Shown: positions 5,783 through 13,881, numbered from the stretch's first letter. The stretch is 64,000 nt of DNA from Candidatus Magasanikiibacteriota bacterium (GCA_026396515.1 JAPLWQ010000002.1:125575-189574); one strand, 5' to 3'. The notes: a model not told the origin generated them from the sequence alone. A program made the numbers and translations.

Positions 5783-6430
5783 ATGAGAAGAAAAATTCTT
5801 TCTGCCGTCATCGCTGTAATGATGATTGTGGGCGGAAGCGGTATATTAAGTTTAGCTCGAATTCAAGTTGTCAAAGCCGTGTCTGACAGTAAAACGCAGA
5901 CAATTGTGCTTTCAGTCACATCAACGATCACGCTGACACTGGCTACCAGCACGGTAAATCTTGGCACATTAGCGCCAGGCACTCCCCTTTCCGCCACAAC
6001 ATCGCTAAGTGTGACCACCAACGACGGTAATGGATGGAATCTTCAGGTTATGCGCGATGACGCCACCACAACATTGAATCTTAATGGAACTTCAACGCCA
6101 GACACTACTTTTCCTGATGCGACGGCCTGGGCATATGCCACTCCAAATGCCACAACTTCCGCTAATGTTGGCGCAAATTTATCATTCAGGATTTTTCAGA
6201 CCGGCACTGATGCAGCACTTTATAATGCCAGCTGGTGGGGGGCTGATGATACCGCTCCGAACGCATTATTCGCCGGGTTTCCTGCCACAAATCAGCAACT
6301 CGCGACAATAGCGTCTTATGTGGGATCTGCACAGGCGGTGGCCTATGGTTTCAGGGCAGATGCTCCGGGCACACAGCCGGGCGGTACTTATTCCGGTACA
6401 GTGACATTTACTGCAATTACCAATCCATAA
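5783..6430 (+). CDS. Secreted WxL-like surface protein, paralogue B
   Basis: 215 aa with signal peptide. Contains NGWNLQV (W-x-L motif) and C-terminal GTYSGTVTFTAITNP. Divergently arranged with paralogue A across a shared ~175-bp intergenic region. Confidence 0.5.
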   Translation: MRRKILSAVIAVMMIVGGSGILSLARIQVVKAVSDSKTQTIVLSVTSTITLTLATSTVNLGTLAPGTPLSATTSLSVTTNDGNGWNLQVMRDDATTTLNLNGTSTPDTTFPDATAWAYATPNATTSANVGANLSFRIFQTGTDAALYNASWWGADDTAPNALFAGFPATNQQLATIASYVGSAQAVAYGFRADAPGTQPGGTYSGTVTFTAITNP

Positions 6431-6442
6431 GAATATATTTTT

Positions 6443-7360
6443 ATGAAGAGAGCGACATACGTCAAATTTGGTCTCTCGCTCATACTGGCCACAATTATTT
6501 CACTACTCAAAATAGAAGCTGCGTCCGCGCAGCTTTCTATTTCTGCATACCCTCTTTCAGTTCGTGGCAAGCTTGACCCGGGGCAATCAATGCAGGCAAA
6601 TGTCACGGTGACAAACCCGAATGATTTTGACATTCGTGTCAGACCGGAAAAAGAAAATCTTAGTGGCGGTGCGGAGGGCGTTATACAGCTTCAGGGCGAA
6701 AAAGATATTCCATGGGGCATCGCGTCGTGGATTAAATTCGATGATTCTAATGATTTTTTGCTTAAACCGAAAGAGCACAGAAAAGTTTTCTTTACTATTG
6801 ACGTACCGGCAAATGCGGAACCGGGAGGCCATTATGGCGCCGTTCTGTTTAGGGCTCTCTCTGCGACTGCTGAAGAAAACGAACAAAGTGGTGTTGAAGT
6901 TTCCGGACGGGTGGGTAGTGTCCTGTTATTCGAAATTTCAGGCAATGTAATTAATGACGCGACCGTGTCGGAAATAATTGCGCCAAAATTTATCGGCCAT
7001 GGACCGTTGAAAATTTCCTTTAAATTTAAAAATGGCGGCAATTCATACTTCAGCCCGGAGGGCGAGGTTGTATATTCAAATTTTTGGAACAAAAGCTATG
7101 ACGCATGGCGGCCACGCGTAGTTTTTCCCGGTTTTGAACGAACATTCGACTCCGCATGGAACCGAAAATTCTTATTTGGTCCTGTAAAAATTACGATCAA
7201 TTCCAGAGTACAGGAAAACGGTCTTATTATCCCTGCAAAATCAATTATTATCTGGGCGTTTCCCTGGCAAGAAGCATTAATTATTCTTGCAGCTATACTG
7301 ATCCTGCTATTCGGAATAAAATATTTCAAAAAGAAATTTAAGATCGTGCGTGTTGAGTAG
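6443..7360 (+). CDS. DUF916/DUF3324-like cell-surface protein with C-terminal membrane anchor
   Basis: 305 aa: signal peptide, beta-rich ectodomain, C-terminal TM helix (ALIILAAILILLFGI) followed by basic tail KYFKKKFKIVRVE. This architecture, and its position next to WxL-like genes, match the DUF916/DUF3324 proteins of Firmicute WxL (Csc) clusters. Architecture-based inference only. Confidence 0.4.
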   Translation: MKRATYVKFGLSLILATIISLLKIEAASAQLSISAYPLSVRGKLDPGQSMQANVTVTNPNDFDIRVRPEKENLSGGAEGVIQLQGEKDIPWGIASWIKFDDSNDFLLKPKEHRKVFFTIDVPANAEPGGHYGAVLFRALSATAEENEQSGVEVSGRVGSVLLFEISGNVINDATVSEIIAPKFIGHGPLKISFKFKNGGNSYFSPEGEVVYSNFWNKSYDAWRPRVVFPGFERTFDSAWNRKFLFGPVKITINSRVQENGLIIPAKSIIIWAFPWQEALIILAAILILLFGIKYFKKKFKIVRVE

Positions 7361-12698: not shown

Positions 12699-12732
12699 TG
12701 TGATATAATAGTAAAAGGAAATTAAATACCAT

Positions 12733-13881
12733 ATGATCGCTCATCGCTTACAAACCCATACCGTGCCGGAACCGCCGGTGCGCGTTTATCGCATTATTGC
12801 CCTCACTTTTCTTGTAGTAACAATCGTTCTGCTCGCGATTGTTATTTTTACCATGCTTAAAAAAACAGAAATTGTGATTGTGGCGAAAGAAGACAGTAAA
12901 ACAATAAATGTTATTGTTAATGCTGAAGCGGAAAAAAAGAGTGATAAATCTTTAGTCGCCACAGTGACGACCACAAAATTTTTCTGGTCTGAAAAATATT
13001 TTCCCACCGCCACCCGCCAAGTCGACGGCACATCAAAGGGAGAAGTTGTCCTTTATAACACTACCAATGAAACACAACCGTTGGTTAAAACCACCCGCGT
13101 AATTACCGCTGAGGGCGTTCTGTTCAGATTGTCTGACAGAGCCATTGTGCCGGCCAATGGTCAAGTGACCGCTCAGGTCTATGCCGACCAGCCGGGCGCT
13201 TCGAGCGACATCGGCCCAAGCAAATTTACTATTCCCGGCCTTAACTCGGAAAAACAAAAAGTTGTTTATGCCGAGAGCGTGAAGCCAATGACCGGCGGTT
13301 CAGGAAAAGTCGGCGTTATCGCGGAATCAGATTTTAAATCGGCTGAATCCGACTTTGCGGAAAAAACAAAAGCTGCCTTTTTACAAACTATTGCTTCCAG
13401 CTCGTCAAATTTTGATCAAACGATTGTTTCCATTTCCCAAAACGGAGCCTCCAGCACTTTTGGTATCGGCGCCGAAGCCAGTGAATTCGAAATTTCCGGT
13501 ACAAGCACACTAGCGCTTATCATGTATAATAAGAACGATCTTAATGAAATTTTAAAAAAGGAAGTCGCCTCCGGTATTGATACGGCATCGGAAAAAATTG
13601 TTTCCATCGGCGATTCGCCAAAAGTGACTGTTGCAGCAACGGATATTGTTAACAGCTCCGCCCAGCTACAAGTAGCGACAGAGGCGATAGTAACTCTGGA
13701 TGCCAATGCTCCGCTTTTAAACAAAGAATATTTTCTCAATAAGCAAAAAGGAGAAATTGAAAGATATATTGTAAGCTTACCTCATGTCACCGGAATGGAC
13801 ATCAAATTTACGCCAAGCTGGACAAGTCGGACACCGAGCGTGGGTGATAAGCTGAAGATAATTGTGAAGAGCGTGAAGTAA
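12733..13881 (+). CDS. Bitopic membrane-anchored protein (N-terminal TM, large Ser/Thr-rich ectodomain), unknown function; last gene of the surface operon
   Basis: 382 aa. TM segment IIALTFLVVTIVLLAIVIFTML. Followed by an intrinsic terminator. Confidence 0.55.
   Translation: MIAHRLQTHTVPEPPVRVYRIIALTFLVVTIVLLAIVIFTMLKKTEIVIVAKEDSKTINVIVNAEAEKKSDKSLVATVTTTKFFWSEKYFPTATRQVDGTSKGEVVLYNTTNETQPLVKTTRVITAEGVLFRLSDRAIVPANGQVTAQVYADQPGASSDIGPSKFTIPGLNSEKQKVVYAESVKPMTGGSGKVGVIAESDFKSAESDFAEKTKAAFLQTIASSSSNFDQTIVSISQNGASSTFGIGAEASEFEISGTSTLALIMYNKNDLNEILKKEVASGIDTASEKIVSIGDSPKVTVAATDIVNSSAQLQVATEAIVTLDANAPLLNKEYFLNKQKGEIERYIVSLPHVTGMDIKFTPSWTSRTPSVGDKLKIIVKSVK

Follow-up and report, generated by a model that had tools for sequence, protein, structure and literature searches.

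Surface assembly by a pilin and a membrane-tethered chaperone has been described both in the Pam pilus of CPR bacteria (Troman et al., bioRxiv 10.64898/2026.03.03.709456) and in the WxL/WxLIP systems of Firmicutes (PMC10599100). The Pam pilus, whose hosts are Saccharimonadia and Microgenomatia, is a CPR-specific, Sec-exported structure of small Ig-like subunits. Its PapD-like chaperones carry a C-terminal TM helix, neither an usher nor an ATPase takes part, and a gene for a large fibre protein or adhesin lies close by. In the WxL/Csc clusters of Firmicutes, a small single-domain protein and an adhesin ending in the same domain are encoded together with a tethered partner, WxLIP, of DUF916-DUF3324-TM layout (PMC10599100, PMC1534035; PDB 9i1y, 9i25). 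Insertion of a WxLIP strand into a partner subunit is documented only as an AlphaFold2 prediction (PMC10599100) and in the title of entry 9i25. Like the chaperone-usher systems, WxL and Pam work without an ATPase (bioRxiv 10.64898/2026.03.03.709456; PMC10599100). Two other arrangements are relevant here: cellulosomal type I anchoring, in which a secreted protein bears a C-terminal dockerin with a duplicated loop and co-encoded, cell-anchored proteins bear the cohesins, and the PilB-PilC or GspE-GspF pair of a full-length assembly ATPase and a polytopic membrane protein.

Elements resembling each of these systems lie side by side in the window analysed here, a 64-kb stretch of DNA from a Candidatus Magasanikiibacteriota bacterium. 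Eight tightly packed plus-strand genes (g1 to g8) had been read in an earlier note as an ATPase-powered surface-display machine of an undescribed kind, an interpretation that is partly supported by the present analysis. A WxL/Pam-class cassette (module A: minus-strand giant gene and g0, plus-strand g1 to g5), newly seen with a cohesin-dockerin pair, stands beside a conserved orphan PilB trio (module B: g6, g7 and g8), and it is improbable that the eight genes together make up a single display machine driven by ATP. As for novelty, the principle of a pilin with a tethered chaperone was already known from the Pam and WxL/WxLIP systems, whereas the Pam paper makes no mention of a cohesin-dockerin pair.

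Organization of the array

The eight plus-strand ORFs are present at 5783-13881, just where the earlier note had placed them, and independent gene calling on a Logan assembly from this organism recovered the same genes (Table 1). Junction sizes, computed from the ORF coordinates of the window and from the Logan gene calls, are 12 nt for g1/g2, 9 nt for g2/g3, 3 nt for g5/g6, 1 nt for g6/g7 and 34 nt for g7/g8. The g3/g4 junction is a 13-nt overlap if g4 starts at the TTG at 8365 and a 5-nt gap if it starts at the called position 8383, and g4 and g5 overlap by 32 nt with an ATG at 9263. The range of 0-13 nt claimed previously holds for most of these junctions but not for g4/g5 and g7/g8. Gaps and overlaps of this size leave no room for an intergenic terminator throughout the array, and no internal terminator was found between the packed genes. 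The terminator proposed at the end of the array was borne out: its hairpin has a dG of -14.7 kcal/mol and a z of -3.55, none of 200 shuffles being equally stable, and it is followed by six U residues. The convergent gene has a second, stronger hairpin of its own at 13945-13976. Overall, the earlier observation is partly confirmed, the eight-gene array and its terminator being real.

Table 1. Positions of the genes and signals of the locus, counted from the first nucleotide of the window.
Feature	Coordinates	Strand	Description	Basis
Giant surface protein gene	<1..4732	-	open frame running off the left window end; 3792 aa on Logan contig	
g0	4878..5606	-	242-aa secreted g1 paralogue, PamT-like single-domain subunit	alignment and NCBIfam
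Divergent intergenic region	5607..5782 (176 nt)	.	promoter-like sites in both directions	consensus matches only
g1	5783..6430	+	215-aa secreted single-domain beta protein; signal peptide, strand region 38-54, Pam-pilin-C-like domain 55-213	
g2	6443..7360	+	305 aa, WxLIP/DUF916 family; signal peptide, two Ig-like beta-sandwich domains, C-terminal TM helix, basic tail	
g3	7370..8377	+	335-aa secreted protein; Cys-rich N-terminal module, Gly run, Big_6, Big_13, C-terminal dockerin	
g4	8365..9294	+	303-309 aa; signal peptide, cohesin, stalk domain of ~100 aa, TM helix and basic tail (anchor type 1)	
g5	9263..10006	+	247 aa; signal peptide, cohesin, linker, TM helix and basic tail (anchor type 2)	
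g6	10010..10975	+	321-aa polytopic membrane protein, DUF7544-like	family profile matches
g7	10977..12698	+	573-aa full-length PilB/GspE-family assembly ATPase	T2SSE 402.7 bits
g8	12733..13881	+	382-aa bitopic protein; conserved 20-residue cytoplasmic N-terminus, TM helix 16-42, Baseplate_J-like ectodomain	
Intrinsic terminator of the plus-strand array	13903..13937	+	hairpin 13903-13931, then U6	

The cassette of g1-g5 includes two further genes that were absent from the operon as first drawn, the giant gene and g0, which diverge from g1-g5 across the intergenic region at 5607-5782. The promoter-like sites found there (TTGTCA-17-TATAAT on the minus strand, with 11/12 matches and a TG, and GTGAAA-17-TACAAT on the plus strand) are consensus matches only, and their count across the whole scanned region does not exceed chance. 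The giant gene is co-directional with g0 and has its N-terminal 1577 codons inside the window; no Pfam match was found in these first 1577 aa. Its product is presumed to be the adhesin of the cassette. Homologous giant genes flank the cassette in four other loci (L002-L004 and L084), and in locus L089 the product of the giant gene has a g1-like domain at its C-terminal end, which reproduces the cluster logic of WxL/Csc systems.

Small subunits and their putative tethered partner

The assignment of g1 as a WxL-like protein was rejected, since none of the 36 members of its family matches Pfam WxL (PF13731) at E <= 0.1. WxL proteins are defined by two Trp-x-Leu motifs within a C-terminal domain of about 160-190 aa, whereas g1 and g0 retain just the first W-x-L (GWNL) and have TFTAITNP at the C-terminus. 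Neither g1 nor g0, which are 36% identical (alignment A2), has any Pfam match at E <= 1, and a PDB search with the A2 profile found no chain, though the title of entry 9i25 mentions a long WxL. Instead, the family yields matches to Pam models, all of them below curated cut-offs. g1 aligns with NCBIfam CPR_Pam_pilin_C (NF058581) over model positions 3-146 of 148 (E = 0.034, 14.2 bits; cut-off 55), a model matched by 19 of the 36 family members with a best E-value of 1.9e-5 and every score under 55 bits. g0 aligns with CPR_pilus_PamT (NF058579) over positions 41-133 of 241 (E = 1.8e-7, 30.8 bits; cut-off 240). The N-terminal strand region of g1 is as conserved as the core of the domain. In addition, the sister cassettes L086, L082 and L087 encode two-domain proteins with a C-terminal Pam_pilin_C-like domain; the 376-aa protein of L086 covers the full model at 24.8 bits (2e-5), likewise sub-threshold.

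The neighbouring g2 had been described as a DUF916/DUF3324-like anchor, and it is the first half of this description that stood. g2 itself scores 22.8 bits against Pfam WxLIP_PGBD (DUF916), under the cut-off of 27.3, but 38 of its 44 homologues match the model, with a best E-value of 4.9e-11, and several of them carry the NCBI name 'DUF916 domain-containing protein'. No sequence match to Pfam DUF3324 was obtained with g2, and no NCBIfam model was matched. The PDB structure most similar to its AlphaFold2 model is E. faecium WxLIP, followed by chaperones of the chaperone-usher class. g2 thereby shows the hallmarks of a WxLIP, namely two tandem Ig-like domains, a C-terminal TM helix and the fold of solved WxLIPs. 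According to the same model and chaperone matches, it also shows that of the Pam chaperones, a PapD/FimC-like fold on a C-terminal TM helix. g2 thus resembles a PapD-like chaperone or adaptor that is tethered to the membrane, a role suggested by fold similarity and by the AlphaFold predictions published for WxLIP and for PamC/D.

The likeness of module A to these systems has clear limits. From the WxL/Csc clusters it differs in the missing Pfam WxL and DUF3324 matches, in having no LPXTG protein, in the added cohesin-dockerin pair and in its CPR host. Chaperone-usher pili (PapD, FimC, CfaA, Caf1M, CsuC) rely on an usher and an outer membrane, both of which module A lacks; its chaperone is membrane-anchored, and sequence similarity to that class is undetectable. 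The features listed above for the Pam pilus recur in module A, from Sec export and small Ig-like subunits to the large neighbouring gene, whereas a two-domain pilin of PamA/B/E type is missing from the window, no protein like PamR turned up, and the dockerin protein and two anchored cohesins come in addition.

Module A could nevertheless be a polymeric Pam-type pilus, with g1 assembling by donor-strand exchange via the conserved strand at its N-terminus, g0 or the giant protein at the tip, g2 as the chaperone, and g3 with g4/g5 as a PamR-like base. Besides the Pam pilin C-domain matches of the g1 family and the PamT match of g0, 22 conserved g1 residues N-terminal of the domain occupy the place of the PamA/B linker strand, the tethered g2 fits the description of PamC/D, and sister cassettes encode the two-domain proteins named above. 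However, every one of these matches is sub-threshold, the window cassette itself has no two-domain PamA/B-like pilin, and NCBIfam searches with g3, g4 and g5 gave no PamR-like match. Moreover, a non-polymeric display of WxL type, with the small subunit held by WxLIP, fits equally well. A pilus of this kind is therefore entertained only tentatively, as a possibility on the doubtful side. The open groove and the donor strand that polymerization of g1 would require are putative.

A dockerin protein and two anchored cohesins

The third gene of the array encodes a protein whose Big_6 and Big_13 domains score above the Pfam cut-off and whose C-terminal dockerin (about residues 275-335, nt 8192-8374) reaches 17.3 bits against Dockerin_1 (PF00404; cut-off 22.9). 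Two DxNxDxxVNxxD calcium loops had been claimed for it. The first, DLNNDCRVNLVD, is canonical, and the dockerin holds at the family level. The second, KLNGDGIISLVD, has K instead of D at position 1 and is an imperfect DxNxD loop; in the window's clade its first ligand is K or Q. The duplicated repeat is kept in the g3 orthologues of L002-L004, L082, L084, L086 and L087. Canonical calcium loops are present in g3 orthologues, and that of L082 has an unmarked Dockerin_1 match.

The claim of two anchored cohesins likewise held at the family level. g5 scores 38.7 bits against Cohesin (PF00963), above the cut-off of 24.1, and its cohesin domain is 37-45% identical to those of the 557-703-aa anchors of L086, L087, L082 and L089. 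g4 reaches 13.9 bits, below that cut-off, with model positions 9-137 of 139 aligned. By BLASTP it is a g5 paralogue (6e-13), and it has orthologues in two sister cassettes (L087_309 and L082_252). Both proteins end in a TM helix and a basic tail.

Dockerin and cohesin genes are neighbours in the same order in six contexts, and independent support for the predicted docking comes from a natural fusion. A 486-aa protein of L088 (Nealsonbacteria) joins the g3 stalk to an anchor stalk: its residues 62-251 align with g3 88-282, ending just before the dockerin (2e-23), and its residues 246-480 align with residues 179-424 of the L089 anchor (L089_703), starting just after the cohesin (1e-36). No dockerin or cohesin is left in the L088 cassette. 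The fusion has exchanged both modules for a peptide bond, which supports the prediction, drawn earlier from the same genes, that the g3 dockerin docks on the membrane-anchored cohesins of g4 and g5.

The presence of a cohesin-dockerin pair also recalls the first proposal made for Csc/WxL clusters, a historical precedent (PMC1534035), and by extension module A might be a miniature cellulosome-like complex that degrades polysaccharide. Against this stands the content of the cassette: searches of g0-g5 and of the giant protein's first 1577 aa turned up neither a glycoside hydrolase nor a carbohydrate-binding module, and the sole dockerin-bearing protein is made of Ig-like domains. In contrast to cellulosomal anchoring, there is one cohesin per anchor, anchoring depends on a TM helix instead of SLH domains or sortase, and the first ligand of loop 2 is K/Q. 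A degradative complex is accordingly considered very improbable.

An orphan PilB with two membrane partners

The description of g7 as a PilB/GspE ATPase was upheld by its T2SSE score and by a match to Geobacter PilB (5tsg) at 3e-100 over residues 18-571. The motifs of the family are visible in the sequence, namely Walker A (GPTGSGKT), Walker B, the Asp and His boxes and the CxxC...CxxC tetracysteine. Scores of 478 bits against TIGR02538 and 471 bits against TIGR02533 are both under the equivalog cut-offs, and the N-terminal MshEN domain is weak (15.6 bits). As in PilB-PilC and GspE-GspF systems, translation of this full-length ATPase with an N-terminal domain is coupled to that of a polytopic membrane protein, here g6 at a distance of 1 nt.

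g6 had been regarded as a polytopic protein of unknown family. It is polytopic and, like g8, has no Pfam family of its own, but DUF7544 is matched by 7 of its 35 relatives (best 1.8e-8). Its relatives form 709 representative clusters at E <= 1e-3, all of about 320 aa. An identity as PilC was rejected, as neither g6 nor any of its 35 relatives matches T2SSF. The third member of the trio, g8, appears to have a fold like that of the phage baseplate wedge, with Pfam Baseplate_J (PF04865) matching at sub-threshold level only. Unlike the J/gp6/gp47 wedge proteins of contractile tails, g8 is cellular, anchored by an N-terminal TM helix and conserved beside housekeeping genes, and no other tail genes lie near it.

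The trio also departs from type IV pilus and type II secretion clusters in what surrounds it. No pilins, PilD or PilM/N/O are encoded nearby; the combination of T2SSF, prepilins and prepilin peptidase with the ATPase is not found at the locus. No ORF with a prepilin motif and no second PilB or PilT gene was found in the 64-kb window, nor any prepilin-motif ORF in 54 loci with the trio. The earlier statement that PilB stands without adjacent pilin or PilC genes is thus correct.

It could still be argued that g7 is the ATPase of an ordinary type IV or competence pilus whose PilC, PilD and pilins are encoded elsewhere, g6 and g8 being unrelated neighbours. g7 is indeed a full-length canonical PilB, close to that of Geobacter and with all motifs; type IV pili are common in CPR bacteria (PMC11623550); and g8 occurs without PilB in some genomes. 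Homologues of g8 stand beside ThrRS without g6 and g7 in a sub-clade (L017-L024), which indicates that the trio is not obligate. On the other side, g6 adjoins PilB in all 54 loci and in the distant locus L093, and most of the loci that were read directly have g6 and g7 only 1-9 nt apart (L001, L005-L008; 48 nt in L003). The trio persists in L093 although g6 is only 26% identical there and the neighbourhood entirely different. Short gaps together with this persistence argue for functional coupling over inherited synteny, and an ordinary pilus ATPase with unrelated neighbours is regarded as possible but rather unlikely.

Two separately conserved units

The conservation of the gene order, proposed as a check of the earlier reading, was verified for module A across distant CPR lineages. 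The cassette occurs in the same order in eight other CPR contexts, whose hosts include Magasanikbacteria, Paceibacteria and Berkelbacteria. In all of them (L082/83, L084/85, L086, L087, L088, L089, L090 and L091) the g1-g5 order, or most of it, is kept without g6, g7 or g8, and no T2SSE ATPase or PilB lies within 8-10 kb. The g6-g7-g8 trio, in turn, is present in 54 of the 81 g8-anchored loci, in Magasanikbacteria, with FtsH (45 loci), ThrRS (43) and MiaA (29) as neighbours. Forty-nine of these 54 loci lack module A, their trios sitting among housekeeping genes; module A genes accompany the trio only in L001-L004 and L007, all close relatives. Both units even occur apart in one Magasanikbacteria genome, where a module A (L084, locus tags P5230_01935/01940) and a trio-only locus (L012, P5230_01865) lie, to judge from their tags, about 14 genes apart on what is apparently one contig of 562,946 bp.

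These distributions bear on the idea of a single eight-gene machine, with PilB acting through g6 and g8 to power the assembly, extension or retraction of a dockerin-cohesin, WxL-like display. The packing is tight and free of internal terminators, L002 and L004 (g8 90% and 69% identical) have all eight genes in this order and L003 has it in part, and in L007 an anchored cohesin, the only module A gene before the trio, lies 5 nt upstream of g6; these observations count against a division into two units, and the modules may be functionally linked within this clade. However, the phylogenetic independence of the two modules argues against a single machine, all module A proteins carry Sec-type signal peptides, and the WxL, Pam and chaperone-usher systems function without ATPases. 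An ATPase-powered display was consequently not sustained, and a single eight-gene machine is judged improbable. The explanation considered fairly likely is that two units, each conserved independently of the other, have come to lie next to each other in one lineage and are probably transcribed together.

Proposed functions of the two modules

As two units, the modules would work separately. Module A would be a cassette of the WxL/Pam class whose products, exported through Sec, serve surface adhesion or fibre formation, and for which no ATPase is needed. With its C-terminal helix in the membrane, g2 may donate a strand to the incomplete Ig-like fold of g1 and g0, by analogy with WxLIP, PamC/D and PapD, and it may likewise hold the matching domain on the giant adhesin. 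g3 would provide an Ig-like stalk whose C-terminal dockerin plugs non-covalently into the cohesins of g4 and g5, as the natural fusion suggests, these being fixed in the membrane by their C-terminal helices. Module B would most likely act in the envelope as a machine of the type IV filament kind, with g6 and not PilC as the membrane partner of the ATPase. The short conserved cytoplasmic tail of g8 may link the ATPase to an extracytoplasmic structure, and the substrate would be encoded away from the locus. In the window's clade, where module B follows immediately after module A, the two would be read through together; this does not speak for a single machine and is probably an accident of the insertion site.

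Two modules in one gene array

The eight packed plus-strand genes g1 to g8 and two minus-strand genes divergent from them (g0 and a giant gene) make up two separable conserved modules: a surface-adhesin cassette formed by the giant gene, g0 and g1 to g5 (module A), and the g6-g7-g8 trio (module B). The source of the window is a MAG of Candidatus Magasanikbacteria, and the proteins of the window are identical to NCBI NTW66_01090 to NTW66_01125. The eight plus-strand ORFs described in an earlier note are present at the coordinates it gave, and the same eight were obtained from an independent gene caller (Logan assembly). 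Their junctions measure, in order, +12, +9, -13 or +5, -32, +3, +1 and +34 nt; the packing is indeed tight, but the proposed range of 0-13 nt is exceeded at two junctions. The terminator assigned to the end of the array is real, consisting of a hairpin followed by U6 (dG -14.7 kcal/mol, z = -3.55), and a second, stronger hairpin serves the convergent downstream gene. The divergent g0 and giant gene, which depart from a 176-nt region (5607-5782), had been overlooked. A promoter scan detected 25 sites against 20.8 expected, which is not above chance, and therefore no argument is made for an internal promoter before g6.

Coordinates of the features in the window
Feature	Position	Strand	Remarks
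Giant gene	runs off the left end of the window	-	3792 aa in the full contig
g0	4878-5606	-	paralogue of g1, 36% identical
g1	5783-6430	+	ORF
g2	6443-7360	+	ORF
g3	7370-8377	+	ORF
g4	8365 or 8383 (alternative starts)-9294	+	ORF
g5	9263-10006	+	ORF
g6	10010-10975	+	ORF
g7	10977-12698	+	ORF
g8	12733-13881	+	ORF
Terminator hairpin	13903-13931		followed by U6
Second hairpin	13945-13976		serves convergent downstream gene
Major-vault-protein-like gene	14021-16537	-	838 aa; Pfam MVP_shoulder, weak Vault_3
23S and 5S rRNA genes	46118-49296	-	no adjacent 16S within the window
T4SS_pilin protein gene	59559-60551	-	330 aa; Pfam PF18895, 2.2e-8

A putative tethered chaperone and the small subunits

The protein encoded by g2 has a WxLIP/chaperone fold. 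Its AlphaFold2 model is confident (pLDDT 91.2) and comprises a signal helix, two beta-sandwich domains (residues 34-165 and 173-272) and a TM helix (275-298). The best Foldseek matches of this model are 9i1y (2e-10) and 9i25_C, 'WxLIP ... bound to long WxL' (3.5e-10), with the chaperones CfaA, FimC, CsuC and Caf1M ranked after them. Against Pfam WxLIP_PGBD (DUF916) g2 itself scores 22.8 bits, the cut-off being 27.3, and the model is matched by 38 of the 44 aligned family members (best 4.9e-11); several of the 91 relatives of g2 carry the NCBI name 'DUF916 domain-containing protein'. On these family and fold matches, therefore, the previous assignment of g2 as a DUF916-like anchor was correct. 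A PDB sequence search with g2 gave nothing significant, and the A3 profile gets to WxLIP at E = 0.06 only. WxLIP has been described as a pair of Ig domains with a TM helix, and a beta-hairpin strand of its DUF916 domain is predicted to insert into the WxL domain (PMC10599100). Strand complementation between chaperone and pilin obeys the same logic.

A second relevant system is the Pam pilus of CPR bacteria; its NCBIfam models were derived from work on Ca. Mycosynbacter amalyticus (2026 preprint, 10.64898/2026.03.03.709456). In these filaments the Ig-like pilins PamA and PamB are linked by donor-strand exchange, PamT is a single-domain tip subunit, PamR is the membrane anchor, and PamC and PamD are PapD/FimC-like chaperones tethered by a C-terminal TM helix, with no dedicated trans-envelope machinery (10.64898/2026.03.03.709456). 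The published description of PamC/D also fits g2; in an NCBIfam scan of 44 g2 homologues no Pam chaperone model was matched.

The small subunits g1 and g0 have no match in the Pfam scan. Among the NCBIfam models, g0 matches CPR_pilus_PamT (E = 1.8e-7) and g1 matches CPR_Pam_pilin_C across nearly the whole model (E = 0.034), both below the curated cut-offs. Relatives of g1 (56) are found exclusively in CPR lineages, and Pam_pilin_C is matched by 19 of 36 aligned family members (best 1.9e-5), every one under the 55-bit cut-off. Pfam WxL was matched by none of those 36, and the former description of g1 as WxL-like fails at this point. Neither g1 nor the profile of its family alignment retrieved anything significant from the PDB by sequence. 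In g1, the 22 residues that separate the signal peptide from the Pam-like domain, QTIVLSVTSTITLTLAT, are conserved as strongly as the domain core. The PamA/B donor or linker strand lies in this position, which is suggestive only.

A probable dockerin-cohesin link

Cohesin-dockerin plugs are usually tied to cellulosomes. In module A, g3 carries Big_6 and Big_13 domains over the Pfam cut-off and a dockerin module that scores below it (Dockerin_1, 17.3 bits, cut-off 22.9), the duplicated repeat of which is kept in orthologues, with the second loop lacking the first Asp in the window's clade. The cohesin assignment holds outright for g5 (38.7 bits, over the Cohesin cut-off of 24.1); g4 remains under this cut-off (13.9 bits) but is a paralogue of g5 across the cohesin domain (27% identity, 6e-13). 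Both have orthologues in other cassettes, g5 resembling 557-703-aa anchors (37-45% identity) and g4 the proteins L087_309 and L082_252, where L numbers designate comparison loci from other genomes. At its N-terminus (window 7370-7660), g3 shows a Cys-rich stretch, CIDGMQNFDETGVDCGGSTCSSC, directly after the signal peptide and then an eight-Gly run.

The strongest evidence for the link between these proteins comes from a natural fusion, a 486-aa protein ending in a TM anchor (L088 8988-10448, Nealsonbacteria WJKU01000035.1). Its residues 62-251 align to g3 88-282, stopping just short of the dockerin (2e-23), and its residues 246-480 align to 179-424 of the anchor L089_703, starting just past the cohesin (1e-36). 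The protein is thus composed of a g3-type Ig stalk, a g4/g5-type post-cohesin stalk and a TM anchor, and neither dockerin nor cohesin is left in the L088 cassette. Loss of both modules is what binding of the g3 dockerin to the anchor cohesins would lead one to expect; judging from these alignments, a peptide bond appears to have taken the place of the non-covalent plug, making the fusion a probable Rosetta-stone indicator of a dockerin-cohesin partnership. A reading of L088 as a dockerin replaced by a TM helix was rejected because pairwise BLAST shows fusion with the anchor stalk.

Taken as a whole, every protein of module A would be exported through Sec. By strand complementation, the membrane-tethered g2 would cap or present g1 and g0, and perhaps also the giant adhesin, and the g3 dockerin, seated in the g4/g5 cohesins, would keep g3 on the cell surface.

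Module A in other genomes

Relatives of g1 and g2 were traced to their contigs and those loci were scored for cassette genes. Module A was found in eight further contexts, the order g1-g2-g3-g4-g5 being complete in four and partial sets occurring elsewhere: Magasanikbacteria (L084/85), Paceibacterota (L082/83), Parcubacteria (L087), Berkelbacteria (L086), Nealsonbacteria (L088), and L089, L090 and L091. In none of them was a g6, g7 or g8 match present within 8-10 kb. L084 (P5230_01935/01940) and the trio-only locus L012 (P5230_01865) apparently lie on one 562,946-bp contig with the modules ~14 genes apart.

A g1-like domain terminates the 4009-aa giant protein of L089 (iE 1.9e-45), as in the 'large WxL' proteins of Firmicutes, and a 376-aa protein of L086 combines an N-terminal domain with a full-length Pam_pilin_C match (2e-5). 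The class therefore has single-domain, two-domain and giant members with the same terminal domain, mirroring both the 'small WxL / large WxL / WxLIP' and the 'PamT / PamA-B / PamC-D' organisations. Giants beside sister cassettes (L089 1-6959, L091 2039-6985) bear DUF2341, Laminin_G_3, Gly_rich_2, Kelch and C1q-like domains. In the first 1577 aa of the window's giant and in several large sister-cassette neighbours, Pfam detected nothing beyond Big_13 and Cohesin.

The g6-g7-g8 trio

As had been recognized from its motifs, g7 is a full-length PilB with all motifs present (T2SSE 402.7 bits, cut-off passed; Geobacter PilB 5tsg, 3e-100 across residues 18-571). The 64-kb window contains neither a pilin gene nor PilT, and g7 is its only PilB gene. 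The window's g6 and g8 have no Pfam match themselves. The g6 family is large (709 representative clusters of ~320-aa proteins), with Pfam DUF7544 matched by 7 of 35 members (best 1.8e-8). It is not a diverged PilC, an identity rejected on the lack of T2SSF matches (0/35), a steady length of ~320 aa and an almost wholly transmembrane character. The third member, g8, is a TM-anchored Baseplate_J-like protein: Baseplate_J is matched below threshold by 8 of 22 g8 relatives, and four of the 20 residues of the g8 cytoplasmic N-terminus are invariant.

An alignment of g8 relatives led to 80 genome loci, which were scored with the window proteins by phmmer and then by iterated HMMs. The trio was found in 54 loci, a count that takes in the contig of the window itself, with FtsH (45 loci), ThrRS (43) and MiaA (29) as recurrent neighbours; a prepilin-motif ORF was sought in the 54 and none was found. 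It also occurs in L093, with 26% g6 identity and quite different neighbours, indicating that it is a real unit beyond inherited backbone synteny and weakening the explanation of g8 conservation by such synteny. The trio is not obligate, since in a Magasanikbacteria sub-clade (L017-L024, e.g. L017 10001-11146) a g8 homologue ~50% identical stands alone upstream of ThrRS/MiaA, neither g6 nor PilB being present within 10 kb. L003, L010, L011, L013 and many other Magasanikbacteria-like loci are titled 'uncultured Gammaproteobacteria bacterium', apparently a mislabel of deposited MAG records. Module B would correspond to a type-IV-filament-like machine in which g6 is the membrane partner of the ATPase and g8 connects the latter with an extracytoplasmic structure.

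Among the trio loci, module A genes are found in the closest relatives only. L002 and L004 have the full set, L003 retains the giant gene and g3-g5, and L007 has a g5-like anchored cohesin alone; in L005, L006 and L008 g6 is the first gene of a separate unit that follows ThrRS, which is transcribed divergently. The earlier note had assembled all eight genes into a single ATP-driven display machine, a proposal now considered unlikely, for which the 3-nt gap between g5 and g6 and the anchored cohesin of L007 leave some room within the window's clade. Against it, nothing outside this clade lends support, the eight other module A contexts have no g6-g8 match within 8-10 kb, and the related systems work without an ATPase. 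The read-through arrangement in the window's clade is best explained as a consequence of the position of module A.

Other features of the window

The vault-like protein located between g8 and FtsH matches rat/human MVP in the PDB (E = 1.6e-20 across residues 464-774). Its gene has a GC content of 62% versus ~44% in the surrounding genome and is absent from L002 and L004, where FtsH comes directly after g8; a recent horizontal insertion seems likely. Finding a vault protein in a CPR bacterium is unusual. Near the right end, the T4SS_pilin protein points to a putative cluster for type IV secretion or conjugation of the Patescibacteria type. With no 16S adjacent in the window, the rRNA genes seem to be unlinked; they account for the GC bump at 46-50 kb.

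Relation to known systems and significance

CPR bacteria live on other cells, and the mechanism of attachment is mostly obscure. The claim that the gene combination was undescribed stands in part. The tethered-chaperone principle is already known from WxL/WxLIP and Pam pili. That such cassettes in CPR conserve a cohesin-dockerin pair is not mentioned in the Pam paper (10.64898/2026.03.03.709456), and literature searches revealed neither this pair nor the DUF7544-like/PilB/Baseplate_J-like trio. Literature searches on DUF7544 and on baseplate J with PilB in Patescibacteria retrieved nothing relevant.

Two broader proposals, that the trio constitutes, in Patescibacteria, a PilB-powered envelope machine of an undescribed kind or that WxL/WxLIP, Pam and the cohesin-dockerin cassette form one ancient family, are jointly considered unlikely. 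The trio machine would work without PilC and without nearby pilins, and in the window's clade it may have been recruited to work on the adhesin cassette next to it. Firmicutes WxL/WxLIP, CPR Pam pili and this cassette may be branches of a single ancient family of surface-assembly systems in monoderm bacteria that rely on a tethered chaperone and have no usher.

A widespread CPR surface cassette thus joins two principles, the tethered chaperone of Pam and WxL and the cohesin-dockerin plug, and from the L088 fusion the binding partners can be predicted directly. Through the g2 family, Firmicutes WxLIP proteins are connected both with chaperones of the chaperone-usher type and with the new pilus system of CPR bacteria, and the conserved PilB operon, with its non-canonical membrane partners, could be a distinct machine.
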